The notes: generated by a model not told the origin, from the letters alone. A stretch of 32,000 nt of DNA from Candidatus Saccharimonadota bacterium (GCA_016699205.1 CP064964.1:510001-542000); one strand, 5' to 3'. Positions 1-31,654 are shown, numbered from the stretch's first letter. Numbers and translations: made by a program.

Positions 1-1006
1 TATAGAGCGTGAGGAACTCTGTGCCGCGCAATCGACCGACGCGAACTTTAAAAACGGATTCACCGGAGCTACCGGAGACAAAGGAGCCCGCGAAATTCCA
101 TGTGCTTGTAGCACTGGGGGCGAGCGTCGAGAGCGTCTGTTCCCATTCATGACCATCAGCTGTCGGCAAAAGTGTGGTACCTGTTGAAGCTGTTGGGATG
201 AAGCCTGTTGGAAATGCGTAGCGGACGATCAAGCCGGATAATTCTTGGCTGCCGCGATTGGCGAGTTCAAAGGTAAAAGGCACTTGGTCGCCAGCAATGG
301 TTTTGGCGGGCAAGAGAACGCGTCCATCAAAAACCGAAGCGCCGTAATCAAGCGATTGCGTGGCGAGGGATTCACGTGAACGAGTTTGACCGGAGGGTCG
401 ATAGGTGGCGATGGCTTGAAATGCGCTTTTAGCGCCGAGTGATCCAAGGAAAATACCCCGTACCGTGATCTGACCTTCTGCCGCCGGAGCGAGCATGCCA
501 AGTTTCCAGGCCGTGTTCTGGGTTTCCGTTGGCCATGGGTCGGTGTAGGTCACTTGGAAATCGGCGGGCCAGGCGAGACGGAGCTCGGCATCGGAAACAG
601 GCTGGAAGGCACGGTTGCGATACTTCACGACGAACGATTGTTCTTGGCCGAGCGTGATCGATGAAGGACCTTCAATCGCTACCTCAAGACCGAGATCATC
701 GATTTCCGTATTTGGCTGGAGCCAGACAAGACCGAGCCAAGCAACGGCGCTCGTCATCGCACACAAAACAAGCAGCCAGGTGAAAAATCGGCGGATGCGA
801 TGCGGCTTGGAGTGCTCGAGCGTAGCAAGATCTTTTTTGCCGCCTTCTGCGAGATAGATTTTTTCCAATCCCCTGGCGACTTCATCGCCTTTCTTTTTTC
901 TGTCATCGGTTTCATCCTCGGAATAGGAAAAAAACGCCTTCTTCCATGGGCGTGGAGGCGGAGGCGGAAGGCGTTTTTTTGAATGTCCTGAGGAGGGCGT
1001 CGTCAT
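1..1006 (-). CDS. Membrane-anchored surface protein, partial (C-terminus lies beyond the left edge). It has a basic/Pro-rich N-terminal tail, one TM helix, then beta-rich Ig-like (DUF11/CARDB-like?) repeats.
   Basis: Hand translation of the minus strand shows no stop from 1006 down to 1. The ORF is absent from the track because it is open-ended. The ATG at 1004-1006 overlaps the TGA of the upstream DUF4012 gene (ATGA). Sequence: MTTPSSGHSKKRLPPPPPRPWKKAFF...RRFFTWLLVLCAMTSAVAWLGLVWL (TM), then ITLGQEQSFVVKYRN..., FTFELANRGSQELSGLIVRYAFP... The domain assignment is weak. Confidence 0.6.
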   Translation of the reverse strand, partial: MTTPSSGHSKKRLPPPPPRPWKKAFFSYSEDETDDRKKKGDEVARGLEKIYLAEGGKKDLATLEHSKPHRIRRFFTWLLVLCAMTSAVAWLGLVWLQPNTEIDDLGLEVAIEGPSSITLGQEQSFVVKYRNRAFQPVSDAELRLAWPADFQVTYTDPWPTETQNTAWKLGMLAPAAEGQITVRGIFLGSLGAKSAFQAIATYRPSGQTRSRESLATQSLDYGASVFDGRVLLPAKTIAGDQVPFTFELANRGSQELSGLIVRYAFPTGFIPTASTGTTLLPTADGHEWEQTLSTLAPSATSTWNFAGSFVSGSSGESVFKVRVGRLRGTEFLTLY

Positions 1007-3630
1007 GGCGTTTGTAATAATCCGGCGACAACCGTATCGCGGTTCCAGAGCCCATCATAACCGATCGTTGGCTGATTGTTGTTAGCCCAAGAAACTTGCC
1101 ACTCGGCCGGTAAGGCAACGGAAGACTTAATAACACGCTCAGGCTTACCCGATTGACTCGTGAGCTGGAGAACGTAAGCCGGTCTGCGGGCGCTGGAAGC
1201 TCGACCAACACCCTCTTGTAATCGGTTGGCGATTTCCGTGACTTCTGTCTCGCCCGGCTCGAGCTGAATCCATCCGCCAAATGCCGTGCGGCCAAATTCA
1301 TCGGTGATGCGGACATTGCCAGGGCCAATGCGGGGACGCGATTCATTTGCGACCACATCTTGGTCTTCCGGATCGGTTGGCAGCGGGGTTTCAAACAGGT
1401 TTTGTGCAGGCGGATTGAAACCTGAAGCGGCGATGAGCTCGCTTCCCTGCGGAACATACACGCGCAGATAGGTGACATTGTTAGCGCCATGGAAAATCTG
1501 TCCTTTTTGTCCGCGATGCGTGCGCGTGATGGTGACTTTATCGGTGATGGAGCCGTCCGGAGCGATGGTTGCGGCGTGCTCGACTTTTTCATCGATCAAT
1601 AGATCGGATTTTTGTCCGCCGATGTTGGTATTTACGACGGCAAGACTATCGCCAGGAACCGTTTTGAGACGGCTCGACCAGCCAAAGCGGTCGGAGAGCT
1701 CTTGCTCATTGTCGCGCGTGAACCAAGCTTGAATATCTTTTTCAACCAAGGCATCCGTTCCGAGTTTTGCAATATCGATCCATTGCTCATTGGACGCTTT
1801 GCTGATGCGCTCGAGCAATTTTGCCATCAAATCGCCAATGAATTTTTTTGGTTTATTTTCCTCGCGATCATACTCGACCTCAACGGCGAGCTGGGCTTCC
1901 TGCATGAAGTTTTCCGAGGTGATGACTTTGCCGTATTCCGGCATTTCAATCGGACCCGTAATTTTGAGCAGGTTTACAACAAGGCGAGCGTTGACCGTGA
2001 GAATGCCATCGAGCGTCGGCTGGCCGGCTTGGCTCCAGAACCAGTTGATTTTTTGGGCCGAGGCGGCGAAATCCGGAAACCAGTTGGCGTCTTGGAATTC
2101 CCAGTGATCGGCAATGAGGCGCATCGGGCCTGGCGCACGGACACGAGCTTTGAGCTGACCTTGAAGGTCGTAAGGGCCGCCACCTGGTACGGAAAGCGAT
2201 TTGATTTCTCCGCGATCAAACACGACTTCTGCGTACGAACCCATGAAACCGCCGGTTGGACGGAGCTCAGCTGGGTTTTGAAAGACAATGAGGTATCGGC
2301 GCTGCGATTCTTCTCCGACTGCGGCGGCAGCGAAAGCCGAGAGAACGCGTAATTCACGCAAACCGGTTTGTACTTTGGAAAGCAGTTCCTGCGCTTCTTC
2401 TGCTTGCGGACGAACATCGGCCGGCAACGATTCCAACTTCACGCGCGACATCGAGCTAACCGCGTCTTCCAAAAGCGGAGCGGCGGCTTCGATATACGTC
2501 TGCATGAGACGGATGCGTTCTACCGGGTAGCGGATCATTCCGTCTTTTGCCTTGTCCGCGCCTTTGGCGAGCATGCCGGCGGCTTCTGCAGCTTTTTGTC
2601 CGGAGGCAACGAGCGCGCGGGCTGAAGCGTAGGCATCGCGTGTTTGCGGGAGCGCTTGAGAAACAGCAACCGCGAGTACGTTAACGCGATTCAATGCGCG
2701 GTCGCTTTCAGCGAGAGAAGCAGCGGCATTCCCCCATTCCATCGCTTTTGCTTCATCGATAGCGGCGCGGCTATTGCCTTCAATCGATGTCCAAGATGCA
2801 GAAAGCGAACGTCCGAGAGAGACGGCTCCGGCTGGCAATGAAACAAAGAGTGCGAGACCCAGAAAACCGGCAACGACACGCAAAGGCGCCAAACGCGGCA
2901 CCAAAACAGGTGCACCCCAAGCTTGCTCGGTGTTGGTAATGACCTGCTCGACGTCTTCACGGATTTCTTCAACAGCATCCTCGACCTTATGTTCAAAAGC
3001 GACGATTTCTTGAGCGATGGAAGGCTTTTTCTCCGCGACTTGGACTGGTCGAGGCTTAGCTTCACCCAAATCCGCATGTTCCCAGGTAATGAAAGGCGCG
3101 CGAATTCTGTTCCACCAGCGATAGCGTTCCTGAAAAGCTGTCTCGGCCTCGCCTGGCGTGTATTGCTCGACGTACCAGTGCGGGTCGGGCTGAACCAAAG
3201 ACAAGTCGGATGCGGCGGCGGCGAGCGCGTCGAGGGAGACGGGTGCGTCGTAGGGAGCGCTCCACTTGTGAATCTCTGCCATGACTGGCTGATGCAGTTC
3301 CGGCTTGTGAGCGCGAGCCGGGCGGACAACCGGCAAAACATGTGCGCTTGCGCTGTGATCCCCTTGTCGGACTTCCAAACGCTTGGCGTGCGAGACACGT
3401 ACAATTTTTTGGACAAGCGCGATGTCCAAATCGAGAATCGGATTTTGCAGTGGCGCTGTTTCCTGGACGCTGGATTTAATTATTTCCGTTTCTACCGACA
3501 TTGAAACCGATGCCGAATCAACCTCGACATGCTCGACCACGTTGGCGAGCTGACTCTCCAGACGCGAGCGCTCGTTCATGACGCGCCACTCGGGTCTTTG
3601 GTTTTTAGGTTGTCGCTTGGAGCGCGGCAT
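1003..3630 (-). CDS. DUF4012 domain-containing membrane protein
   Basis: 875-aa ORF. The motif RYLIVFQNPAELRPTGGFMGSYAEVVFDRGEI matches the DUF4012 signature as I remember it. It has a long acidic N-terminal region followed by a TM helix (VVAGFLGLALFVSLPAGAV). The start lies 9 nt after the GT stop. Confidence 0.7.
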   Translation of the reverse strand: MPRSKRQPKNQRPEWRVMNERSRLESQLANVVEHVEVDSASVSMSVETEIIKSSVQETAPLQNPILDLDIALVQKIVRVSHAKRLEVRQGDHSASAHVLPVVRPARAHKPELHQPVMAEIHKWSAPYDAPVSLDALAAAASDLSLVQPDPHWYVEQYTPGEAETAFQERYRWWNRIRAPFITWEHADLGEAKPRPVQVAEKKPSIAQEIVAFEHKVEDAVEEIREDVEQVITNTEQAWGAPVLVPRLAPLRVVAGFLGLALFVSLPAGAVSLGRSLSASWTSIEGNSRAAIDEAKAMEWGNAAASLAESDRALNRVNVLAVAVSQALPQTRDAYASARALVASGQKAAEAAGMLAKGADKAKDGMIRYPVERIRLMQTYIEAAAPLLEDAVSSMSRVKLESLPADVRPQAEEAQELLSKVQTGLRELRVLSAFAAAAVGEESQRRYLIVFQNPAELRPTGGFMGSYAEVVFDRGEIKSLSVPGGGPYDLQGQLKARVRAPGPMRLIADHWEFQDANWFPDFAASAQKINWFWSQAGQPTLDGILTVNARLVVNLLKITGPIEMPEYGKVITSENFMQEAQLAVEVEYDREENKPKKFIGDLMAKLLERISKASNEQWIDIAKLGTDALVEKDIQAWFTRDNEQELSDRFGWSSRLKTVPGDSLAVVNTNIGGQKSDLLIDEKVEHAATIAPDGSITDKVTITRTHRGQKGQIFHGANNVTYLRVYVPQGSELIAASGFNPPAQNLFETPLPTDPEDQDVVANESRPRIGPGNVRITDEFGRTAFGGWIQLEPGETEVTEIANRLQEGVGRASSARRPAYVLQLTSQSGKPERVIKSSVALPAEWQVSWANNNQPTIGYDGLWNRDTVVAGLLQTP

Positions 3631-5695: not shown

Positions 5696-6913
5696 ATGAA
5701 CTACCCCATCGCCACATTATTGCCGGGCCGAGACACGCCAGTACGCGCGGGTCATCCTTGGATTTTTTCCAAAGCGATTGCCAAAGAACCAAAGCCATCT
5801 CCGGCTAATGGCGAGCTTGTTTTAGTGCAGTCGGCCAAAGGTGATTCGATCGGCCTTGGAACATGGGGCGCGGGTGCGTCGATCCGTATCCGCATGCTGA
5901 CGACCGATAGCAAAGCTGTGATCGATACGGATTGGTTTATCGAGAAGTTGCGTGCCATCGATACCTGGAAAAAGACACATCTTCCTGCGGATACGGATGG
6001 GTATCGCGTTGTGTATGCCGAGTCGGATGGCATTCCAGGATTGATTGTGGATCGCTATGCGGATGTGATCGTCATGCAGATTCATACGGCCGGTATGGAT
6101 CGTTTGCGTACGGAGATTCTCCAGGCGTTACAGGAAGTATTTGAGCCACGCGCGATCGTGGAGCGCTCCGACATCGAGTCGCGTTTGCGCGATGGTTTGC
6201 AGATGATTGAGCCGATTGTTCGTCACGGTGAGATCGATAAGCCGGTCGCATTTAAGGAACATGGTCTGACATTTTTGGCCGATGTTCTTGGCGGACAGAA
6301 AACGGGATTCTTTCTTGATCAGCGCGAGACGCCGTCACTTGCGTTGGAACGCTATCGAAGGACAAACATGTATTGAATCTCTTTGGATATACGGGCGGAT
6401 TTAGCGTGCATGCCGGCCAAAGGCGGTGCGAGTTTTGTGACGACGGTTGATTTGTCAGAATCGGCGTTGGAACTTGCGCAGCAAAACTTGAAAGCGAATG
6501 GATTTGATCCAGAAGATGAAAGCCAATTCCTTTTGCTCGAGGCCGATGTGATGGATTTGATTCGCGAACGCGAACTTGCTGGCGCACCCTATGATTTGAT
6601 CGTGTGTGATCCGCCGGCTTTTGCAAAAACGGGCACGCAATCCGAGAACGCGCTCGATGCGTACACAAAACTCAATATGGAATGCTTGATGCGTCTTGGC
6701 CAAGGCGGCATTCTCGTGACGAGCTCTTGTTCCGGACGCGTGACTCCTGATGAATTCAAGTCGATGCTGCGTATTGCCGCAGGACGGGCTGGCCGCGATG
6801 TGCGATTGATTGCGGAACTTGGACATGACATCGATCATGCCGAGCGCATCGCGTTTCCGGAGGGTCGCTATCTGAAGACATTGGTTGTCGAGGTGACGAA
6901 CATCATCAAATAA
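5696..6913 (+). pseudogene. RlmI/RlmK-like class I SAM-dependent rRNA (cytosine-C5) methyltransferase with PUA-like N-terminus. It is disrupted by two compensating frameshifts around SAM motif I.
   Basis: Track ORFs 5696..6376 and 6383..6913 are in the same frame, separated by TGA at 6374-6376. The N-terminal part ends GFFLDQRETPSLALERY. The expected motif I (KDKHVLNLFGYTGGFSVHA) is encoded at about 6357-6412 in the -1 frame. The original frame resumes with AKGGASFVTTVDLSESALELAQQNL...DLIVCDPPAF. Confidence 0.7.
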
Positions 6914-6919
6914 ATAAAC

Positions 6920-6950
6920 AAAAAAGCTCCCGCGTCGGGAGCTTTTTTGT
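6920..6950. terminator. Bidirectional intrinsic terminator (A-tract / hairpin / T-tract)
   Basis: aaaaa-agctcccg-cgt-cgggagct-tttttgt, located between the methyltransferase gene and the convergent tRNA-Gly. Confidence 0.75.
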
Positions 6951-7029
6951 TGGAGCGGGTGAGGGGAATCGATCGAACCCCTGTCAACAGGTTGGAAACC
7001 TGTGGTAATAGCCATTATACGACACCCGC
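6951..7029 (-). tRNA. tRNA-Gly (anticodon UCC), CCA encoded, with an atypical 11-nt T-loop
   Basis: Reverse complement: gcgggtg tc gtat aatggcta ttac c acagg TT-TCC-AA cctgt tgac agggg ttcgatcgatt cccct cacccgc t cca. The T-loop reads ttcgaTCGAtt instead of the usual 7 nt. Confidence 0.7.
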
Positions 7030-7105
7030 GAACGGGAGAAATCTACTTGAAATGCTTTTTTTAGGCAAGACGCTCCTGTGCTATGCTTCATGAGCGGAGG
7101 TTTCT

Positions 7106-7603
7106 ATGCGACAGATATTGCTGATCGCGCGTCAGCTGACGGTTGCAGGGGCGATGATCGACCCGCAAACAGCCAAGTTCATCGACACGCAGAAAGATCT
7201 CCACGAAGAAATTTCTGCGGAACTCTCTACCTTTGGCCAAGTTCTCAAGAAGAGCACGAGCGGTGTCTTTCCCCGCGCTCAGACGCCAGCACCCGACACA
7301 AAGTCGGTCGAGCTCGCGCCCACGTTCTTTGCCGAGATTTTGCCACTCGTTATCAAGTCAGACTGTGTCGTCGTTGTCCGCGACGGCCAAAATGATTTGC
7401 GAGGCGCCATCGTCATGTTTGCATCCATGGAGAGACGTCCGGTCCTTGCCCTTCTGCAGGAACCGAAAGGCGTTCACCTCCCCGGCGACCCCCTCTACCA
7501 TCTACCCAACATCACCAACGTCCGTTTCCATCATTTCCCAGAAGCCAAAAATGGCATCGCGAGATTCATGAACGGAATCCCGCTACGACAAGCGGCCGGC
7601 TGA
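7106..7603 (+). CDS. Hypothetical protein (165 aa) between two tRNA genes
   Basis: GGAGG lies 6 nt upstream of the ATG at 7106. The SDCVVVVRDGQNDLRGAIVMFASMERRPVLAL segment looks like a Rossmann-type beta-alpha unit, but no family is recognised. Confidence 0.55.
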   Translation: MRQILLIARQLTVAGAMIDPQTAKFIDTQKDLHEEISAELSTFGQVLKKSTSGVFPRAQTPAPDTKSVELAPTFFAEILPLVIKSDCVVVVRDGQNDLRGAIVMFASMERRPVLALLQEPKGVHLPGDPLYHLPNITNVRFHHFPEAKNGIARFMNGIPLRQAAG

Positions 7604-7605
7604 CT

Positions 7606-7640
7606 AGAGGGAGGCTGATATAGCCTCCCTCTTCACATTT
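7606..7640 (+). terminator. Intrinsic terminator
   Basis: agagggaggct-gatat-agcctccctct followed by tcacattt (weak T tract). Confidence 0.55.
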
Positions 7641-7681
7641 CTAGCGACATTTGGTACTGTCTGCGAGCAAAAATACCACGC

Positions 7682-7756
7682 GCCGAGGTAGCTCAGTGGT
7701 AGAGCGAAGGACTGAAAATCCTTGCGTCGCCAGTTCGATCCTGGCTCTCGGCACCA
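7682..7756 (+). tRNA. tRNA-Phe (anticodon GAA), CCA encoded
   Basis: gccgagg ta gctc agtggta gagc g aagga CT-GAA-AA tcctt gcgtc gccag ttcgatc ctggc tctcggc a cca. Confidence 0.9.
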
Positions 7757-7760
7757 TGAG

Positions 7761-7797
7761 GGACGACCCTACTCACAGGGTCGTTCTTCTTTTTTCC
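7761..7797 (+). terminator. Intrinsic terminator after tRNA-Phe
   Basis: ggacgaccct-actcac-agggtcgttc followed by ttcttttttcc. Confidence 0.75.
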
Positions 7798-8036
7798 AAA
7801 CAAAAAAAGACCGGCATGAGGTATTCGGCTCAGTCAAATGGGGCCAAGGCCGTACCTGTAGCCCGCTACGCCAGAATGAACCGACGCTGCCGCTACAGAG
7901 GTGGTAAGCCGCCCGGGATCGTCGCCCTTTTGCCTCAGCAAATACGCAGACCGGATCCCACGAGTCGAACATTAGCCCGAATCCTCACACCAGCCTGTTT
8001 CAAATATTCCATGCTTCGCATCGGATGTAAAGCAGA

Positions 8037-8062
8037 AGCCCCCCGAAGTACTTCGGGGGGCT
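8037..8062 (-). terminator. Perfect 26-nt palindromic hairpin just downstream of the 8068-9450 gene
   Basis: agccccccgaagt/acttcggggggct. On the minus strand it is followed by tctgctttacatc, which is only moderately U-rich. Confidence 0.5.
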
Positions 8063-8067
8063 CGAGT

Positions 8068-9450
8068 TCAGAACTTGCCTTTGTTGTCGTGGGCGCGCAC
8101 GTGGGCGACGAATTGGTGCCAGATGTCGGCGTTGGTGCGCGGCAACGTCACGTCGTCGACGGTGACAAAGTCGGCGGGCCACGGGACGTCGGTCAACGCC
8201 TCCGGAAACAAGATGAAGAAGATGTCCCGGATGTACTGCAGGAGCTTGTAGCAGCCGTGATGCGCGTCATCGTGACGGCATCTGCTGTCGATGAAGTCGC
8301 GAATCGACATGAACTGCACTTCGACGACGCGGTCGGCGACGAGCGCGTTGTACTTCATCGCCTTGAAGCGCTTGCTTGATGAACCGTTGCGCTCATCGAG
8401 CTTGCGGCCTTCTCGGTGGCCGAGATTGGAGTCTTGATCGCAGACCGATCCGGGGCACGGCACGAGGACCTGACGCACGGCCGAGACCACCGCATCGACA
8501 TCGGCTTCCGAGTCGATGACAAAGGTCATGGCGACGCCGTCGCCGATGTTGGCGAGCTGCGGGAAGCGGATGTCCTTGATCAGGCCTTTCAGCACCGGAA
8601 AGCGCTTGGGGCGGATGAAGAACAGGGTCGGAATGTCTTCCCCGCGCAGCTTGTATCGATTGGTCTCGACGGTGAACTGCGTATCGGACGGAAGCGACGA
8701 CTCGCGCGGTGCGGCGTAGCGGTATTCCTTGCAGGCAAACGCATGCTCCGGATCGAGCGTTGCGACGATCTTCACCTTTTCCTTGGAACCGCGCTGGAAC
8801 AGGGTCTGCTCCAAGATGCGCTTGATCTGCACGGTCTCATCCTCGAGCGTCGCCTGCGCGTAACCGGCGCGACGATACTCAAAGAACGATTGCGCGAGGA
8901 CGAGTTTGGTCTGCGCGGAGCGCTTGACCCATGCCCAGTCCGACCATTCACGCCCCGGCGGCAAAGGCGCTCGCGCGATATCGAGAAGCTTGATCGGATT
9001 GTGCGTCGAGCGGACTTCTTCCGGACGACGCAGCATGTGATGCAGATCGCGATTCTGGCCATTCACCTCCAGCAGACGCGGAAGATACGACAGCAGGTAG
9101 TCGTACATTTCCTCGACGTCACGGCAGGAGTCGCGCCAGATCGCATAGTTGCGGTCAAAGTCTGCCGGTAGCCCACGGTACATCGGAACGGTCTTGCGAC
9201 CGCTTGCACGACGAAGGCTGCCGACAAAGTGATCGTGGAAGGTTTGGAGCAGGGTCTCCATCTTGATCTTGTCCGACCAGCCGAGGCGATCGGCCTTGGC
9301 AGAGACGGAGTCGAGCTTGGCGAACAGCATGCGCCAGCGGATGATCTCTCCATACATGACGGAGTGGCGGTCGGAAGCCATGGCACCGAGCTCGCTGCCA
9401 CGCAGGTGGATCAGGCTCGGAAACTTACGCGCAAGTCTCTCTCGAGACAT
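8068..9450 (-). CDS. RelA/SpoT-like nucleotidyltransferase domain protein (putative small-alarmone-synthetase/toxSAS-like C-terminal half, unknown N-terminal half)
   Basis: 460-aa ORF. By-eye alignment to the E. coli RelA synthetase core: IRPKRFPVLKGLIKD ~ GRPKHIYSIWRKM; IGDGVAMTFVIDSEADVDAVV ~ DVRAVRIV...DCYAAL; RFKAMKYNALV ~ GYQSIHTVV; VVEVQFMSIRDF ~ VEIQIRT; AHHGCYKL ~ AAHWKYK. The gene is much more GC-rich than its neighbours. Confidence 0.55.
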   Translation of the reverse strand: MSRERLARKFPSLIHLRGSELGAMASDRHSVMYGEIIRWRMLFAKLDSVSAKADRLGWSDKIKMETLLQTFHDHFVGSLRRASGRKTVPMYRGLPADFDRNYAIWRDSCRDVEEMYDYLLSYLPRLLEVNGQNRDLHHMLRRPEEVRSTHNPIKLLDIARAPLPPGREWSDWAWVKRSAQTKLVLAQSFFEYRRAGYAQATLEDETVQIKRILEQTLFQRGSKEKVKIVATLDPEHAFACKEYRYAAPRESSLPSDTQFTVETNRYKLRGEDIPTLFFIRPKRFPVLKGLIKDIRFPQLANIGDGVAMTFVIDSEADVDAVVSAVRQVLVPCPGSVCDQDSNLGHREGRKLDERNGSSSKRFKAMKYNALVADRVVEVQFMSIRDFIDSRCRHDDAHHGCYKLLQYIRDIFFILFPEALTDVPWPADFVTVDDVTLPRTNADIWHQFVAHVRAHDNKGKF

Positions 9451-9510
9451 CTTCCTATCCCTTTCATGGAAAGAACGAGCTTCGACATTTCCACAAAAGC
9501 CCGATTTTGG

Positions 9511-10773
9511 CTAGACCCGAATGCTTTGGACGATAAGGGCGACAGTCGCCAGCCCGAGTCCGATCACCGTCAAACCATTCCACATATTAGACCAAAGTCC
9601 GTTTTTCCAGACTCCCATGCGTTTTTTATCATTTGCGATCAGGAGAATTGCCATGAGCAATGGAGCTGCGATAGCTCCATTTAAGGCAGCAGAAGCAACC
9701 AGTAGATCAATTGGCGCAAAACCCATCAGGGCAAAAAGGAGACCGAGCAAGGTTGAGCACGCGATTACCGCGTAGAAGCCACGGGCACGGAACCAGGGCT
9801 TATCCAAGCCAAGTTTCCAACCAAAGCCTTCAGAAACAGCATAAGCGGTGGAACCAGCAAGAACCGGAACAGCGAGTAATCCAACGCCAATAATACCGAG
9901 GGCAAATACGAGCCCTGCTGCGTGACCAGCGACAGGAACCAAGAGGCGTGCAATATCAGCGGCGGAATGGATTTCACCGACTCCTCCGGCGTGGAGCATG
10001 CCGGCTGCCGTCAGCAAGATGAACCAGGCGACGATATTAGACAGCAGCATTCCGAGCGCCGTGTCGATACGCATGATACGGAGCTCGCCCACAAGCTTAC
10101 GATCGGTTCCATTTTTTTTATGCTGGTGACGTTTTTGACGCTCCTCTTCCCACTCTTGTCCGCCTTGCCAGAAAAAAAGATAAGGCGAGATGGTTGTACC
10201 AAGAATCGCGAGTAGTAAATAAATAAAATCGCGGCTCGGTACGAAGGTGGGAACAACGGTTGCGGTTGCGGCCATGTTCCAATCGATCGGCCAGACAAAG
10301 GCGACAGCGATGTAAGCGAGCAAAGCGAGTGTCAGCCACTTCAAATACTTTGCGTATGTTTTGTAGGAAAGAAAAATCTCGAGACACAGACCGATCAGCG
10401 TAAAAACAACCAGCAGTGATGTTGTCGGAACCGGAATAATGAGGCGAGCTGCTTCCGCCATCATCAACAAATCTGCGGCGATATTTACGACATTTGCAAT
10501 GAACAACAATAGGACTACCGGCACGACCAATGATTTGGAATACTCGCGAATATTGCTTCCTAGCCCCTTTCCCGTAACGAGTACGATGCGTGCACACATC
10601 TCCTGTACGGCAAACATCAATGGGAAACTGAATAACAGCGTCCAAAGAGGCGCATAACCAAAACGCGCGCCTGCTTGCGCATAGGTCGCGACCCCTGACG
10701 GGTCGTCATCTGCGGCGCCGGTTGTGACTCCGGGGCCGATTATTTTTCCAAAACGCTTCAAACGAGCGAACAT
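9511..10773 (-). CDS. NRAMP-family divalent metal cation transporter
   Basis: ORF 9511..10860 trimmed to MFARLKRFGKIIGPG (ATG 10771-10773). GPGVTTGAADDDPSGVATYAQAGARFGY is the Nramp-type N-terminal motif. The protein is polytopic and hydrophobic throughout. Confidence 0.8.
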   Translation of the reverse strand: MFARLKRFGKIIGPGVTTGAADDDPSGVATYAQAGARFGYAPLWTLLFSFPLMFAVQEMCARIVLVTGKGLGSNIREYSKSLVVPVVLLLFIANVVNIAADLLMMAEAARLIIPVPTTSLLVVFTLIGLCLEIFLSYKTYAKYLKWLTLALLAYIAVAFVWPIDWNMAATATVVPTFVPSRDFIYLLLAILGTTISPYLFFWQGGQEWEEERQKRHQHKKNGTDRKLVGELRIMRIDTALGMLLSNIVAWFILLTAAGMLHAGGVGEIHSAADIARLLVPVAGHAAGLVFALGIIGVGLLAVPVLAGSTAYAVSEGFGWKLGLDKPWFRARGFYAVIACSTLLGLLFALMGFAPIDLLVASAALNGAIAAPLLMAILLIANDKKRMGVWKNGLWSNMWNGLTVIGLGLATVALIVQSIRV

Positions 10774-10838
10774 GATTTCATTGTAGCAAAAACACCGACA
10801 GCTTGCGCTATCGGTGTTTGTTTGGACTGAATATTTAT

Positions 10839-11429
10839 TTACTCTGCTGGCAAGAACCACTTGGCATCGTACTGCACGCGATCGTTCACATGCTCGTACT
10901 TGTGCAACTCGACTTCCGAGAACCAGATCGGAATTTCGTTGTTGGCTTCCTGAACATTGCCAGAGGCGTGGATCAAGTTGCGGAGCGGACGGTTCTGCGC
11001 GTTGGAGAGCGCATAGGTGTCGTGCGAGAGATCTCCGCGGATTGTTCCGGCCGGAGAGGAGGCAGGCTCCGTTGCACCAACGAGTTTGCGGACCAAGGAA
11101 ACAGCCATCTCGCCTTCAAGCACCATGGCGACAATCGGCGAGGAGCGGAGGAAGTCGACTAGGCCAGCCTTGATCTCGCCGCCATAGGCTTTGTGATCGG
11201 CGTACGGGAAGACTTTTCCTTCTGCCTCGTACTTGGTTTTAGCCTTGGTAAAGACGGCCATCATCCATTCTTCCGTCAGAGCATAGTGCTTATCGACGTC
11301 TTCCTGCTCAGCGTGAACCATTTTCATGGCCACGATCTTAAGTCCAACCTGCTCAAAACGGCTAAGAATAGTGCCAATTAAGCCGCGCTGAACGCCATCC
11401 GGTTTGATCAATACAAGTGTTTGTTCCAT
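10839..11429 (-). CDS. ndk: Nucleoside-diphosphate kinase (long form with insertion)
   Basis: ORF trimmed to MEQTLVLIKPDGVQRGLIGTILSRFE. GTIRGD and NLIHASG (active-site His) are present. About 197 aa, versus about 140-150 for classical Ndk. Confidence 0.85.
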   Translation of the reverse strand: MEQTLVLIKPDGVQRGLIGTILSRFEQVGLKIVAMKMVHAEQEDVDKHYALTEEWMMAVFTKAKTKYEAEGKVFPYADHKAYGGEIKAGLVDFLRSSPIVAMVLEGEMAVSLVRKLVGATEPASSPAGTIRGDLSHDTYALSNAQNRPLRNLIHASGNVQEANNEIPIWFSEVELHKYEHVNDRVQYDAKWFLPAE

Positions 11430-11441
11430 ATGATGTGGCAG

Positions 11442-11494
11442 AGTATACACATATTTCTCCAAACCTTGCAAAATAATCGGCTTTTTGTTAGACT
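11442..11494. promoter_or_regulatory. Divergent sigma70-like promoter pair sharing one palindromic -35 hexamer TTGCAA
   Basis: Plus strand: TTGCAA (11466-11471), 17 nt, TAGACT (11489-11494), leading to rpmF-nusB-rnc. Minus strand: the same TTGCAA, 18 nt, TATACT (11442-11447). The ndk ATG lies only 12 nt past that -10, and no SD is visible. Confidence 0.4.
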
Positions 11495-11523
11495 TGAGGC
11501 AACTATTTACTGATTTATCTGAT

Positions 11524-11829
11524 ATGGGACTTCCTGGCCATCGCCGAACTAGCTCACACAAGCGCCGCCGCGCCTCACATTTTGCGTTAACTAAGCCTTC
11601 AATTACGACTGACAAGGCCGGTCGTACGCATCGCATGCACCGTGCCGCCCCTGGCGCCACGGAGTACAATGGTATTGCCATTCACGTAAAAGGCCGCGAG
11701 CGCAAGCTTGCCAAGGCCTTGGCCAAGACCAAGCCTCAGCACGATCACAAGCACGACGAGAAGGAGCACGATCACGAAACCAAGAAAGCCGCTCCTCCGA
11801 AGGCTAAGACACGTGCCAAGAAAGCGTAA
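11524..11829 (+). CDS. rpmF: 50S ribosomal protein bL32 with a long His/Lys-rich C-terminal extension
   Basis: ORF trimmed to MGLPGHRRTSSHKRRRASHFAL (bL32 N-terminal signature). No Cys zinc knuckle is present. The tail reads KPQHDHKHDEKEHDHETKKAAPPKAKTRAKKA. Confidence 0.75.
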   Translation: MGLPGHRRTSSHKRRRASHFALTKPSITTDKAGRTHRMHRAAPGATEYNGIAIHVKGRERKLAKALAKTKPQHDHKHDEKEHDHETKKAAPPKAKTRAKKA

Positions 11830-13838: not shown

Positions 13839-13931
13839 ATTTTTTAGGTAGCGACGTGAGATTAGCCTAGAAAGACATTTGCGACAAGCGTTAGGCTGGG
13901 CTAAGGTTTGGCTGCACCTTTAGGAGGATTC

Positions 13932-14558
13932 ATGCCCAAGTCGGAGCTGCCGATCGATATCCTGATAGAGAAGAAGTGCATCATGCAGGGGCACTTTGTG
14001 CTCAAGAGCGGAAAGCACTCCTCGGTGTACATCAACAAGATCCGGATGTACCCGGACTCGATCTTGCTCAGCACGCTGTGCATCGAACTCGCGACGCCAT
14101 TCATAAGCGATCCGGTCGACATCGTCGTCGGTCCGGCGCTCGGAGTGATTGCGCTTGCGCTTTGTACCGCCAAGTCGCTCTCAATCTGGCGCAATACCGT
14201 CGTGCCGTGGGCGTTTGCGGAGAAGGATGGCGAGAACTTCACGTTCCGAGATCCGTATCCCGAGTATCTCCACAACATGCAGGTCCTCGTCGTGGATGAC
14301 ATCCTGACGACGGGCGGCTCGATCAAGCGTACGATCGAGGCGGTACGACGCGCGGGAGGGATTCCTGTGGGCGTCGGGGCGATCTGCAATCGCGGACGCG
14401 TGACCGCAGAGACGCTAGGCGTCTCCAAGCTGCGCTCCCTCATCGAGATGTCCGTGGAGGACACTTGGGAGGCTGCCGATTGTCCGCTTTGCGCGAGCGG
14501 CGTACCGATCAGCATCGATGTTGGCCACGGCAAGCAGTTCTTGACTGACAAGAGCTGA
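13932..14558 (+). CDS. pyrE: Orotate phosphoribosyltransferase-like PRTase
   Basis: AGGAGG lies 4 nt upstream of the ATG at 13932 (MPKSELPIDIL). GHFVLKSGKHSSVYIN matches the OPRT N-terminal motif and VLVVDDILTTGGSIKRTIEAV the PRPP-binding motif. The gene is GC-rich relative to the background. Confidence 0.7.
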   Translation: MPKSELPIDILIEKKCIMQGHFVLKSGKHSSVYINKIRMYPDSILLSTLCIELATPFISDPVDIVVGPALGVIALALCTAKSLSIWRNTVVPWAFAEKDGENFTFRDPYPEYLHNMQVLVVDDILTTGGSIKRTIEAVRRAGGIPVGVGAICNRGRVTAETLGVSKLRSLIEMSVEDTWEAADCPLCASGVPISIDVGHGKQFLTDKS

Positions 14559-23580: not shown

Positions 23581-23685
23581 TTAAATCAAGCACATCACAA
23601 CTGCAGCTCCTAACGCCATCGAGACGATGCTAATCGAGACGTAGATCGCCCATGGCTCTGGCGGATTGTCTTGCCAGAAGTTCAT
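23581..23685 (-). CDS. Putative 34-aa transmembrane micro-protein, translationally coupled (ATGA) to the upstream lipoprotein gene
   Basis: Hand translation: MNFWQDNPPEPWAIYVSISIVSMALGAAVVMCLI*. The ATG overlaps the TGA of 23682..24455. Not in the ORF track (under 60 aa). Confidence 0.35.
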   Translation of the reverse strand: MNFWQDNPPEPWAIYVSISIVSMALGAAVVMCLI

Positions 23686-24455
23686 GGGGAGATCAGGTCT
23701 GCGGGGCAATGCGCAAATGAGTCATGCGTCATTGCAAAGGCAACGGGTGCGAGGGCGCGGAGACGGGCTTCACGGATCATGAGAGCGTCTTCCGGGTGAT
23801 AGCCGGCCTCGGCGGCGAGTTCCGGCGGCGTGAAGATGTAGGAGCGGCCGCGAGAGACGATGTAGAGTGCGGACTCGGTTTGCACGAGTGTACCGTCGCG
23901 CAGGTTGAAGTCGGGATCGATGTCTCGGAATGATGACCACTCCGTGGTAACAAAGTCGTACCAGTCGATCCAGTCGGGATCACGGCCCCAAGAGCGCATG
24001 GCTTCCGGGGACGTAAGCCGTCGCTCCATCAAAGACCAGTTCAGGACGTAGAGATTCTCGTCTTCACCGGCGCCGTAGTAAGGAGCCCAGTCGAGGATAT
24101 CGGGGATCCAGAGCTCGTCTTCATCGCCAGGGAGACAGCGCTCTTCCTCGGCAGTCATGGGGATGGCGTCGCCGTCATCGAGACCGGCCTCTCCGAGGAG
24201 ATCGTCACCCGGAACAAAGACACGGCGGCCGCCGACCGCGACCATCCAGAGATCGCCGCGGTGGTCGGCGAGGAGGGTGCCGACGGGGTGGGTGCGGGGC
24301 CAGCCGTGGGAAGGATCATGGATTTCGAATGGCGTATGAAGAGTATGAGAGGCGTCGGGCATGAATCCCCCGTCTGCGGGCTGTGCGGACGCTCCATTCT
24401 CCAATACGCATGCATTCAGAAACAGGAACGCAATCAAACAGCCGATGGTGCGCAT
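23682..24455 (-). CDS. Hypothetical acidic lipoprotein (257 aa), very GC-rich
   Basis: MRTIGCLIAFLFLNAC is a signal peptide with a lipobox (L-N-A-C). AAGGAG lies 6 nt upstream of the ATG. No family recognised. Confidence 0.65.
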   Translation of the reverse strand: MRTIGCLIAFLFLNACVLENGASAQPADGGFMPDASHTLHTPFEIHDPSHGWPRTHPVGTLLADHRGDLWMVAVGGRRVFVPGDDLLGEAGLDDGDAIPMTAEEERCLPGDEDELWIPDILDWAPYYGAGEDENLYVLNWSLMERRLTSPEAMRSWGRDPDWIDWYDFVTTEWSSFRDIDPDFNLRDGTLVQTESALYIVSRGRSYIFTPPELAAEAGYHPEDALMIREARLRALAPVAFAMTHDSFAHCPADLISP

Positions 24456-29405: not shown

Positions 29406-29429
29406 TATACAAGCGATCCGGAGGTGAAT

Positions 29430-29873
29430 GTGAATCTTTTGTTTGTTTGCCGCGGCAACACTTGCCGTAGCGTGCTCGCGCACTACATCGCGGAGGTGCT
29501 GGTTCGCAGCCATCCGGTCAAGCAGAAACCATTGATCCGCTCTGCGGGTGTCGAGGCTTGGCCTGGGATGACGGCGTCGTCCCACACCCTACAGGTTCTC
29601 GCCAAGGACTATGACTACGATGCGAGCTCGCACCGAGCGAGCAAGCTCACGCCTGAGCACATCAAATGGGCGGACGTGATCTATACGATGACGACCGCCC
29701 GCCGCGACCAGATCACGACCCAATTTCCCCAAGCCGTCGCCAAGCTCAAGCTCCTGTCTGCCAAGATTCCAATCGAGGATCCGATCGGTGGTGATGAGAC
29801 CGTGTACCGCGAGCTTGCAAAAGACATCGAGCAGGCTCTCAAGGTGCGCTACCTCGAGCTCGGCATCTTCTGA
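29430..29873 (+). CDS. Low-molecular-weight protein tyrosine/arginine phosphatase
   Basis: LLFVCRGNTCRSVLA carries the CX5R(S) P-loop. The catalytic Asp region is IEDPIGG. The GTG start lies 5 nt after GGAGG; the track start at 29424 lies within the SD. Confidence 0.8.
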   Translation: MNLLFVCRGNTCRSVLAHYIAEVLVRSHPVKQKPLIRSAGVEAWPGMTASSHTLQVLAKDYDYDASSHRASKLTPEHIKWADVIYTMTTARRDQITTQFPQAVAKLKLLSAKIPIEDPIGGDETVYRELAKDIEQALKVRYLELGIF

Positions 29874-30426: not shown

Positions 30427-30583
30427 CTCATTATCAAGAGCGCAGACGAGGGTTTCTGGCCCAATGACTCTGCCGGCAACGTATCCATATGGACAACGTG
30501 CCAATTCCAGCCCTTATCGGGACAGATAACGAGTTCGAAATGGAATTTCATCGACTCTTCCGTCCACGGGAGAGCGTTTTTTT
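30427..30583 (+). promoter_or_regulatory. SAM-I (S-box) riboswitch with intrinsic terminator, upstream of metK
   Basis: ctcaTTATCAAGAGcgcagacGAGGGtttcTGGCCCaATGActctgCCGGCAACg...cGTGCCAATTCCagccc...gggacAGATAAcgag matches the S-box consensus. The terminator is ctcttccg-tcca-cgggagag plus cgttttttt (30555-30583). Confidence 0.85.
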
Positions 30584-30601: not shown

Positions 30602-31654
30602 ATGCCTTTATTGCCATCGACCTACACCGCCGAAAGCGTTACTTCCGGACATCCTGATAAAGTTTGCGATCAAATCTCGGATGCGATTCTTGATACGTGT
30701 CTCGCGCAAGATCCCACGAGCCGTGTGGCTGTCGAGTGTCTTGGCTCGCATGGGCTACTCGTCATCGCCGGAGAAGTTACAACGCGTGCGGATTTTGATG
30801 CGGAAAAAATCGCGCGAAACGTCTACCGTAAAATTGGTTATGAGGATGATTTGGAGGTACGGGTCCATCTCACCAAGCAATCGCCGGATATTGCGCAGGG
30901 CGTTGATCCGGGAGGCGCGGGCGATCAAGGAATTATGTACGGTTTTGCCACAGACGAAACGGCGGAATATCTGCCGATAGCTAGCGTGGAGGCGCATCGC
31001 CTTGCAAGGACACTGGAGCAGCTCCGCAAGAACGACGCCGCTTATCACTGGTTACGACCCGACGGAAAAACGCAGATCACCATTCAGGATGGGAAGATCA
31101 CAGACGTCTTGATCAGCACACAACATGCGATCGAAATAACGCAGGAAGAGATCGCGCGAGCGCTTGAGCCGTTGATCGATCCGATTTTGGAGAAAGGACA
31201 TAGACCGCGTTTCCTTGTGAATCCTACGGGGCGATTTGTCCTTGGTGGATTTACCGCCGATGCCGGATTAACCGGACGTAAAATCATGGTTGATACGTAT
31301 GGCGGTGTCATACCGCATGGCGGGGGCGCGTTTTCCGGAAAAGATGCGACCAAGGTTGATCGCTCAGCGGCGTACATGTGCCGGTTTGTGGCAAAAAATC
31401 TTGTGGCAAATGGTCACGCCAAGGAGTGCCTGGTTTCTGTTGCTTACGCCATCGGTATGGTTGATCCGCTGATGGTGTATGCCATAGACCAAGACCGAAG
31501 ACCTATCGACAAGCACTTACTTGATTCCTTTGATTTTCGGCCGACAGCTATCATGGAGCGGCTTGGGTTACGACAGCCAATTTTCCAACAAACTGCCGCG
31601 TATGGGCACTTTGGTAAGGCCGGATTGCCGTGGGAAGATGTCGTGGTATGCTGA
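30602..31654 (+). CDS. metK: S-adenosylmethionine synthetase (compact, 350 aa)
   Basis: ESVTSGHPDKVCDQISDAILD, GAGDQGIMYGFA, GGGAFSGKDATKVDRSAAY. Confidence 0.9.
   Translation: MPLLPSTYTAESVTSGHPDKVCDQISDAILDTCLAQDPTSRVAVECLGSHGLLVIAGEVTTRADFDAEKIARNVYRKIGYEDDLEVRVHLTKQSPDIAQGVDPGGAGDQGIMYGFATDETAEYLPIASVEAHRLARTLEQLRKNDAAYHWLRPDGKTQITIQDGKITDVLISTQHAIEITQEEIARALEPLIDPILEKGHRPRFLVNPTGRFVLGGFTADAGLTGRKIMVDTYGGVIPHGGGAFSGKDATKVDRSAAYMCRFVAKNLVANGHAKECLVSVAYAIGMVDPLMVYAIDQDRRPIDKHLLDSFDFRPTAIMERLGLRQPIFQQTAAYGHFGKAGLPWEDVVVC

Follow-up and report, generated by a model that had tools for sequence, protein, structure and literature searches.

Within a 32,000-nucleotide stretch of DNA from a Candidatus Saccharimonadota bacterium (GCA_016699205.1, CP064964.1:510001-542000; hereafter the window), an open reading frame (ORF) at 8068-9450 on the minus strand encodes a 460-residue protein whose C-terminal part, judged from sequence profiles and a structural model, is an extremely diverged nucleotidyltransferase of the RelA/SpoT homologue (RSH) synthetase type. 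RSH enzymes are central bacterial growth-control and stress-signalling enzymes, and have lately also emerged as toxins and phage-defence effectors; the regulatory physiology of the ultra-small bacteria of the candidate phyla radiation (CPR) is largely unknown. The gene, here called the RSH-like gene, is linked to ndk, the gene for nucleoside diphosphate kinase (NDK), and adjoins a structured RNA. We favour, with a probability of roughly 0.6, the reading that it would encode a lineage-specific, ndk-linked, stand-alone RSH pyrophosphokinase with an alarmone-type product.

RSH synthetase fold and active site

The RSH-like ORF, with an ATG start and the stop codon inside its coordinates, is as described in an earlier note on this DNA, which had been made from the sequence alone and had picked out by eye the ordered blocks of the RSH synthetase fold in the C-terminal part. 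We assign the catalytic core to residues ~271-420 (8191-8640, minus strand), on the basis of Foldseek, hhalign and family conservation. An AlphaFold2 (AF2) model of the full protein was built from the family alignment, with a predicted local distance difference test score (pLDDT) of 83.8 and a predicted TM-score (pTM) of 0.84. Modelling followed by Foldseek, a check that the earlier note had suggested, places RSH enzymes at the top, where they fill nearly all of the ~30 best PDB matches, with a few low-probability exceptions. The best match is S. aureus Rel (7oiw; E 1.8e-4, probability 1.0), and the top list contains Rel from S. aureus, B. subtilis, S. equisimilis and M. tuberculosis, together with RelA, SpoT, RelP, RelQ, CapRel and FaRel. 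The target-normalised TM-scores are modest (0.3-0.45) because a single domain matches. In the viral library BFVD, phage RelA/SpoT proteins rank first.

Profile comparisons lead to the same superfamily. A profile of 54 diverse relatives (A2; mean column identity 18%) matches RelSeq (1vj7) among PDB sequences at E 0.0019, and its top four matches are all Rel or RelA (RelSeq, M. tuberculosis Rel and RelA, E 0.002-0.006); the alignment to RelSeq begins in the helical hairpin/beta-meander region, from RelSeq residue 195 on. With hhalign, the same profile aligns residues 274-403 with residues 246-359 of E. coli RelA (E 4e-4), block for block with the motifs that had been seen by eye. Specifically, R280, K282, K288, D304 and E377 pair with RelA R252, K254, K262, D275 and E335, and Q379, H398, Y401 and K402 pair with RelA Q337, H354, Y357 and K358. 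Eight of the 54 relatives match PF04607 (RelA_SpoT), weakly and over nearly its full length (best E 5.4e-4, with 20.5 bits where the cut-off is 27), while other Pfam families each appear once among the 54 and none recurs. A profile of the close family (A1) finds nothing relevant in the PDB, and the window protein itself has no relevant match at E≤10 in Pfam, NCBIfam, PADLOC or, by phmmer, the PDB. The placement in the RSH superfamily is thus based on the Foldseek matches, the A2 profile, the hhalign alignment to RelA and the weak PF04607 matches of relatives, and it is supported by the conservation of active-site residues.

In the 54-sequence alignment, the only invariant columns are K282, K288, D304 and E377. 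Y401 is kept in 53 sequences, R280, N355 and H398 in 51 each, K366 in 48 and Q379 in 46, and the blocks named in the earlier note are the most conserved columns of the family. Position 362 is aromatic in 49 sequences (Phe in 29, Tyr in 20) and lies inside a [FY]-x-A-x-K366 motif, which matches RelA Y319-Q-S-I-H323 once the hhalign gap is shifted by four residues, the alignment of this loop being uncertain. In characterised enzymes, the G-loop aromatic residue (RelA Y319, FaRel2 Y128, CapRel Y155) stacks on the acceptor base. Both the Mg2+-binding D90 and the acceptor-stacking Y128 of FaRel2 are essential (10.1101/2021.04.30.441581). From sequence, the donor site looks intact and the acceptor loop looks remodelled.

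By analogy with RSH enzymes, R280, K282 and K288 would hold the beta- and gamma-phosphates of ATP, D304 and E377 would hold Mg2+, and the aromatic residue at position 362 would stack on the acceptor base, so that the beta-gamma pyrophosphate of ATP could be transferred to the 3′-OH of the acceptor ribose. The acceptor would most simply be a purine nucleotide, giving an alarmone of the (p)ppGpp or (p)ppApp type; that the acceptor is specifically a nucleotide, we rate at slightly below even odds. NDK, presumably expressed alongside the enzyme, would supply and balance its nucleoside triphosphate and diphosphate substrates, and the N-terminal domain would act as a regulatory module.

N-terminal domain and C-terminal tail

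In the AF2 model, the N-terminal domain (residues ~1-165; 8956-9450, minus strand) is all-helical apart from one small beta-hairpin. It is followed, ahead of the catalytic core, by a helical hairpin (residues 169-217) and a beta-meander (residues 224-268; together 8641-8946, minus strand), for which DSSP assigns helices 169-197 and 199-217 and strands 224-233, 239-246 and 258-268. The N-terminal region had been described as unrecognisable, and it is so: sequence comparisons with Pfam (E≤10), NCBIfam, PADLOC and the PDB give no match, and a separate model of residues 1-222 (pLDDT 76) finds no significant fold match in the PDB (best E 0.97, probability 0.20). We considered a degenerate HD pseudo-hydrolase, since the best fold matches of the full protein are to the two-domain N-terminal halves of Rel enzymes over 250-440 columns, and rejected it: the 1-222 model matches no HD or Rel structure, and no His or Asp metal ligands are conserved.

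The helical hairpin and beta-meander occur throughout the family, whose members carry at least 154, and mostly at least 195, residues ahead of the RxK motif, and a short-form clade (loci L013, L016 and L018) lacks the first ~80-100 residues. In the close family, F10, P11, G34, R38, Y91, D97, F98, P124 and P152 are invariant. Relative to the 87%-identical orthologue in locus L002, the ratio of nonsynonymous to synonymous substitution (dN/dS) is 0.11 overall (dS 0.75), 0.13 for residues 1-222 and 0.095 for residues 223-460. The N-terminal domain is lineage-specific and, like the catalytic half, under purifying selection.

The C-terminal tail (residues ~421-460; 8071-8190, minus strand) is modelled as a beta-beta-alpha unit, with strands 426-431 and 434-439 and helix 441-455. 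W424, P425, F428, P437 and H450 are conserved in the close family, and distant relatives have a shorter tail, of 39-45 residues past the YK motif.

Family distribution and base composition

An exhaustive phmmer scan of 1.8 billion representatives yields 61 relatives in total, entered in the databases as "hypothetical protein", and extending the family with the A2 profile in a 5.8-billion-protein database recovers the identical set. The 22 close relatives (35-99% identity) are nearly all of ~460 residues and every one is unannotated; those that carry a name come from metagenome-assembled genomes (MAGs) of Candidatus Uhrbacteria, and one relative lies on a 1.07-Mb contig. Distant relatives have 374-531 residues and are 24-34% identical over the catalytic core. 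A pattern-seeded scan of 185,579 species-representative genomes likewise restricts the family to Uhrbacteria/Patescibacteria MAGs. The family is a Pfam-invisible RSH clade with a new domain architecture, confined as sampled to Uhrbacteria-like CPR bacteria. One record that contains the locus (L010, CAYZVS010000001.1) is titled 'uncultured Gammaproteobacteria bacterium' and carries an Uhrbacteria-type locus (RSH-like protein 79% and NDK 89% identical, RNA present); its taxonomic label is probably wrong.

The earlier note had regarded the gene as compositionally foreign, a GC-rich single-gene island at a tRNA-Phe gene that might encode a toxic small alarmone synthetase (toxSAS) or a fused toxin-antitoxin (TA) phage sensor resembling CapRel. 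The compositional excess is real: G+C content is 0.604 in the gene against 0.535 in the window, where 0.16% of windows of the gene's length are equally GC-rich, and G+C at third codon positions (GC3) is 0.79 against 0.52 in the neighbouring Nramp gene and 0.59 in ndk, as a toxSAS island would lead one to expect. It does not amount to evidence that the gene is foreign: orthologues at the equivalent locus, in genomes of 43-59% GC, show an equal relative GC3 excess, which is thus an old property of the gene. Similarly high GC3 is seen elsewhere in the window (0.77 at 13908-14558, 0.75 at 29424-29873), and GC3 heterogeneity is a general feature of this genome. Specifically, the segments at 13901-14558 (both strands), 23682-24455 (minus strand) and 29424-29873 (plus strand) have GC3 of 0.70-0.77, comparable to the RSH-like gene, and the first of them holds two 216-residue ORFs that overlap on opposite strands.

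Linkage to ndk and vertical inheritance

In the window, the RSH-like gene is preceded on the minus strand by an Nramp (Mn2+/Fe2+ transporter) gene at 9511-10860, an ORF that ends 60 nt upstream of it and is an optional member of the locus, and by ndk at 10842-11426 (tblastn coordinates; PF00334, E 4e-39). Upstream sequence is available for 16 distinct loci, and in all 16 ndk lies upstream on the same strand. PF01566 (Nramp) is found in the orthologous loci L002, L004, L007 and L022 and is absent from L005, L006 and L011; ndk and the RSH-like gene are therefore the ancestral pair. Distant relatives are still directly preceded by ndk, some of them in an unrelated ComEC-MBL-ndk-gene neighbourhood. 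No terminator is called in the 60-nt gap between the Nramp and RSH-like genes.

The order of the locus consists of a divergent L32-NusB-RNase III block and then, on the opposite strand, ndk, optionally Nramp, and the RSH-like gene, and its position is constant among orthologues whose proteins are 87, 68, 57, 53, 47, 39, 36 and 32% identical to the window protein. The gene occupies the orthologous site in all related loci recovered, which were retrieved through the RSH-like protein itself, so that gene-less sites fall outside the sample. Downstream, a GC-rich hairpin stands 3′ of the gene. In the window, it is the perfect 13+13 palindrome that had been pointed out before, AGCCCCCCGAAGT/ACTTCGGGGGGCT at 8037-8062 (minus strand), which starts 5 nt past the stop codon and resembles an intrinsic terminator; L002, L004, L006 and L011 have a GC-rich hairpin of other sequence at the equivalent position.

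The tRNA-Phe(GAA) gene (7682-7756, plus strand; ARAGORN, Rfam 67.7 bits) is indeed present, 310 nt from the stop codon of the RSH-like gene rather than immediately beside it, with a structured RNA gene in between. It remains in the neighbourhood across loci, at varying distance and orientation. There is no integrase-like ORF within 7000-11700, and the sole repeat that touches the tRNA, as an att-like repeat would, pairs it with 13 nt of Nramp at 85% identity, no more than chance would give. No relatives occur in IMG/VR viral contigs, INPHARED phages or PLSDB plasmids, and PADLOC returns no defence-system model match. In line with the earlier note, no small ORF that could encode an antitoxin adjoins the gene in a conserved manner across loci. 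Candidate antitoxin ORFs of 74 residues (L005) and 72 residues (L015) between ndk and the gene were rejected, being mutually unrelated (E 14) and without a Pfam match, as were ORFs of 61-67 residues in the window spacer, which overlap the RNA gene. We take the gene to be vertically inherited in Candidatus Uhrbacteria and related Patescibacteria, and not to be a recent island or TA element. Homologues are conserved genes in related genomes, and the island, toxSAS and defence claims largely fall with this result.

Several other genes occur at these loci. In L023, a ParE-toxin gene and a small upstream ORF, likely a TA pair, lie between ndk and the RSH-like gene (2471-2997, minus strand). In L017, a NUDIX hydrolase gene directly follows the array of ndk, RSH-like gene and RNA (5955-6428, plus strand); NUDIX enzymes are known (p)ppGpp degraders, and this hydrolase could, as a partner, degrade a pyrophosphorylated product. 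A family of proteins of ~430-470 residues, with a signal-peptide-like N-terminus, a conserved SVGQEYNNPDVN motif and no Pfam match, moves around the locus, sometimes in tandem. Its copies are found in L004 (8083-9381), L005 (7777-9111), L007 (7664-9007), L010 (6479-7855, minus strand) and L020 (2604-4007, plus strand, and 962-2266, minus strand).

A structured RNA beside the gene

In cross-locus alignment, the 310-nt spacer between the stop codon and tRNA-Phe is conserved at the DNA level well above the protein. Most of it is occupied by an unclassified structured non-coding RNA of ~200 nt (7799-8001, minus strand), defined by cross-locus conservation, RNAalifold and a covariance model. A 23-bp stem pairs its 5′ with its 3′ end and closes the structure; with the U-run behind it, this stem is by sequence the RNA's own terminator. 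The interior is a three-way junction with two hairpins. Immediately upstream is a promoter-like site (8003-8031, minus strand; TTTACA-17 nt-AATATT with a TG extension), whose −35 block (TTTACA/TTGACG/TTGACC) and TGgAAT(A/T)T block align between loci. The RNA is thus predicted to be transcribed independently, from its own promoter to its own terminator. Convergent with it, a terminator-like hairpin of 13 pairs followed by TTTTTT stands after tRNA-Phe (7758-7795, plus strand).

The structure is supported by covariation. From seven sequences, RNAalifold derives a structure of 65 pairs, and 16 of these show compensatory changes. In an alignment of 12 sequences, fitted to the covariance model and thereby somewhat favouring the structure, 38 of the 65 pairs are changed on both sides, against 17.9±2.8 in shuffled and 12-17 in slid controls; 91% of cells pair, whereas the slid controls reach 38-45%. 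The covariance model R1 scores 203.5 bits in the window. Rfam 15 (4227 families) has no match to the spacer RNA in the window at the gathering threshold, at E≤1 or, on a 231-nt stretch, at E≤10, and the divergent copies from L005, L007, L015 and L017 have no Rfam match at E≤10 either. The RNA is a new motif, previously undescribed. A T-loop-like hairpin and an ACCA-like stretch picked out by eye were discarded, as they are not conserved in L005 and L006, and five viral-contig matches to the RNA sequence pattern are unconfirmed by the covariance model.

In 11 distinct loci, over a range of protein identity from 87% to ~27%, the RNA and the stop codon are less than 100 nt apart. Among them are L005 and L007, where tRNA-Phe is 2-3 kb away, and the distant L015, L017 and L022; in L023, the RNA is inverted and still adjoins the gene. 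What comes after the RNA varies by locus (tRNA-Phe, hyp444, NUDIX or acetyltransferase). The RNA is the most conserved downstream neighbour, adjoins the gene in most loci that encode the long form, and keeps company with the gene, not with the tRNA. In L010 and L020, an inserted gene of opposite orientation separates the two; it encodes a ~460-residue member of the family, described above, that moves around the locus. The RSH-like protein diverges far faster than its neighbours NDK and the RNA: for L011, the RSH-like protein is 47% and NDK 79% identical and the RNA scores 191 bits; for L020, the protein is 48% identical and the RNA scores 230 bits. An unfiltered covariance-model search detects no RNA in the short-form clade (L013, L016, L018), where L013 has tRNA-Pro in its place. 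In L012, an unfiltered covariance-model search (short hairpin matches) and direct reading find the RNA absent beside a full-length orthologue; 3′ of this 42%-identical orthologue (1470-1720), it is replaced by repeated inverted GTCATTGCGAGGAG / CTCGCAATGAC units.

All RNA-positive loci also retain the larger NusB-RNaseIII-NDK block, and the linkage of RNA and gene, suggestive as it is of a functional pairing, could therefore be due to inheritance alone.

Weighing the alternatives

Several observations weigh against a stand-alone RSH pyrophosphokinase with an alarmone-type product. The window protein has no Pfam match at E≤10 and so misses the gathering threshold of PF04607, the family against which the earlier note had suggested checking it. 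Between D338 and F362, the loop has been remodelled and carries an insertion that RelA lacks, and the canonical N-G-Y-x-S-x-H motif reads N355-x-x-S-S-x-x-[FY]-x-A-x-K in this family, with Lys366 in place of His, and the Arg of D-x-x-x-x-R is Thr309, a position that is Lys or Arg in only half of the family. Co-transcription from ndk through the optional Nramp gene to the RSH-like gene is inferred from strand and spacing alone. The RSH-like protein diverges far faster than NDK (39-57% against ~80% identity), a pattern that a conflict-related gene would fit too. Finally, tight linkage to a structured RNA is unexpected for a plain nucleotide alarmone synthetase.

In the likeliest of the alternatives, the enzyme would be directed or switched by RNA, and the adjacent RNA, bound by the N-terminal domain, would be its substrate, its activator or its inhibitor (an RNA antitoxin). 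Such a role would account for the adjacency of the RNA in 11 distinct loci, even where tRNA-Phe has moved or the RNA is inverted, for its rank as the most conserved downstream neighbour, and for the loose correlation by which it is undetected where the N-terminus is short. It also has a precedent, since RSH enzymes are proven to pyrophosphorylate RNA 3′-CCA ends (10.1101/2021.04.30.441581). However, the 3′ end of this RNA is a terminator U-run and not CCA, its ACCA-like stretch and T-loop-like hairpin vary between loci, the inserted gene breaks the adjacency in L010 and L020, and L012 has a full-length orthologue without the RNA. Furthermore, the linkage could reflect phylogenetic inertia, and the RNA may have a housekeeping function unconnected with the enzyme, for instance as a divergent 6S-type RNA missed by Rfam. 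On balance, we consider RNA-directed or RNA-switched activity unlikely, and we are similarly doubtful of the broader proposal that the RSH-like enzyme, the adjacent RNA and ndk form a dedicated growth-control module specific to CPR bacteria. RelA is activated by deacylated tRNA, and no characterised stringent-response system is known from CPR bacteria.

It is less probable still that the RSH fold works outside alarmone chemistry, on another acceptor (a metabolite, a protein side chain or a cofactor), or that the protein acts chiefly as a nucleotide-binding regulator of NDK or Nramp. The remodelled acceptor loop, with its insertion and the His-to-Lys366 and Arg-to-Thr309 replacements, and the invisibility of the family to PF04607 would fit such a role, and a physical complex might explain the obligatory pairing with ndk. 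However, all donor-site and Mg2+-binding residues and the putative stacking aromatic residue are strongly constrained across the 54 sequences, which speaks for an enzyme that truly transfers pyrophosphate to an acceptor carrying a base.

A toxSAS or CapRel-like phage sensor, which the fusion of an extra domain to an RSH fold with no separate antitoxin, the weak fold matches to CapRel (7ztb) and FaRel (8pu1), both within E 0.3-0.6, the rapid divergence relative to NDK and the ParE pair inserted in L023 might recall, is, in our judgement, about as improbable, given the synteny kept over 87-32% identity, the family-wide link to NDK, the shared GC3 bias, the lack of integrase, att repeats, PADLOC match and phage, plasmid or viral relatives, a domain order that is the reverse of CapRel with an extra domain as constrained as the catalytic half, and best fold matches to housekeeping Rel enzymes rather than toxSAS.

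If active as a pyrophosphokinase, the protein would be a candidate alarmone synthetase for one CPR lineage and would add a new domain architecture to the RSH superfamily. The invariant pairing with ndk suggests a direct coupling of nucleotide-pool maintenance with alarmone or RNA modification chemistry, and the adjacent RNA could turn out to be the first RNA that partners a stand-alone RSH enzyme.

Comparison with known RSH enzymes and RNAs

Long RSH enzymes (RelSeq 1vj7, S. aureus Rel 7oiw, B. subtilis Rel 8acu, M. tuberculosis Rel 5xnx and E. coli RelA) are the best structural and profile matches, and their ordered motifs (R-x-K...K, D-x-x-G/A, aromatic-x-[SA]-x-[HK], E-x-Q and H-x-x-Y-K) are kept in the RSH-like protein, the aromatic one as a probable match. 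Unlike them, it has no HD hydrolase domain, no conserved H/HD/D metal ligands and no TGS, helical, ZFD or ACT regulatory domains, while it has an extra beta-meander before the R-x-K strand, a remodelled acceptor loop and a sequence that scores below PF04607. It is not a long RSH, because it lacks the HD, TGS and ACT domains.

The small alarmone synthetases (SAS) RelP and RelQ (6fgj, 6ewz, 5ded, 5dec) share with it a single catalytic RSH domain and a stand-alone, chromosomal, non-mobile gene, and their folds match over 117-165 columns (target-normalised TM ~0.4, probability up to 0.99). However, the RSH-like protein has over twice their length, ~270 of its residues preceding the catalytic strand; sequence searches detect no similarity to them, and its gene has ndk as a constant neighbour and an RNA gene beside it. 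Because of its double length and its novel N-terminal domain, it is not a typical SAS.

The toxSAS enzymes comprise the tRNA 3′-CCA pyrophosphokinases FaRel2, PhRel2 and CapRel and the (pp)pApp synthetases FaRel and Tas1, and have the RSH fold in common with the RSH-like protein, which also conserves the equivalent of the FaRel2 Mg2+-binding Asp (D90) and, as a probable match, that of its stacking aromatic residue (Y128). Fold matches to CapRel and FaRel are weak (E 0.3-1.2). Typical of toxSAS genes are a patchy or mobile distribution and TA operons, whereas the RSH-like gene is syntenic and vertical, with no antitoxin gene or TA operon. As in fused CapRel, one ORF encodes both the RSH domain and an extra domain, and a separate antitoxin is lacking. 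In CapRel, however, an N-terminal toxSYNTH domain is followed by a C-terminal pseudo-ZFD antitoxin and sensor, the least conserved region (PMC9712102), whereas the extra domain of the RSH-like protein is N-terminal, of unrelated fold and not hypervariable.

In the literature, the classification of Jimmy et al. (PMC7229694) lists 30 SAS, 11 small alarmone hydrolase (SAH) and 13 long-RSH subfamilies and does not mention candidate phyla, and we found no paper connecting RSH enzymes with CPR/Patescibacteria or with the neighbourhood of ndk.

The adjacent RNA, for its part, resembles 6S RNA, Y-RNA/YrlA and raiA-type motifs in its size of ~200 nt, its own promoter and terminator, the long irregular stem that pairs its 5′ with its 3′ end, and its conserved unpaired nucleotides at an internal loop or junction. 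It differs from 6S RNA, a single bubble-interrupted rod, in having a three-way junction with two hairpins.

Other observations in the window

Two other loci in the window appear disrupted. A tRNA-Gly(UCC) at 6960-7024 (minus strand; aligned stretch 6940-7045) carries a 4-nt tandem duplication (TCGA) in its T-loop, GGGGTTCGATCGATTCCCC against GGGGTTCGATTCCCC. It is intact at the equivalent position in L002, L004 and L010, and in the window it is missed by ARAGORN and scores 33 bits with Rfam; either the tRNA gene is damaged or the assembly is wrong here. About 600 nt away, a PUA and S-adenosylmethionine (SAM)-methyltransferase gene (RlmI-like), which is one ORF of 404 residues in L002, L004 and L011, is split into 5696-6376 and 6383-6913 (plus strand), with at least two frameshifts suggested around 6330-6415; it is either a pseudogene or the product of local indel errors. 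Elsewhere, a SAM riboswitch (RF00162, 60.9 bits) at 30428-30532 (plus strand) precedes a 350-residue ORF at 30602-31654.

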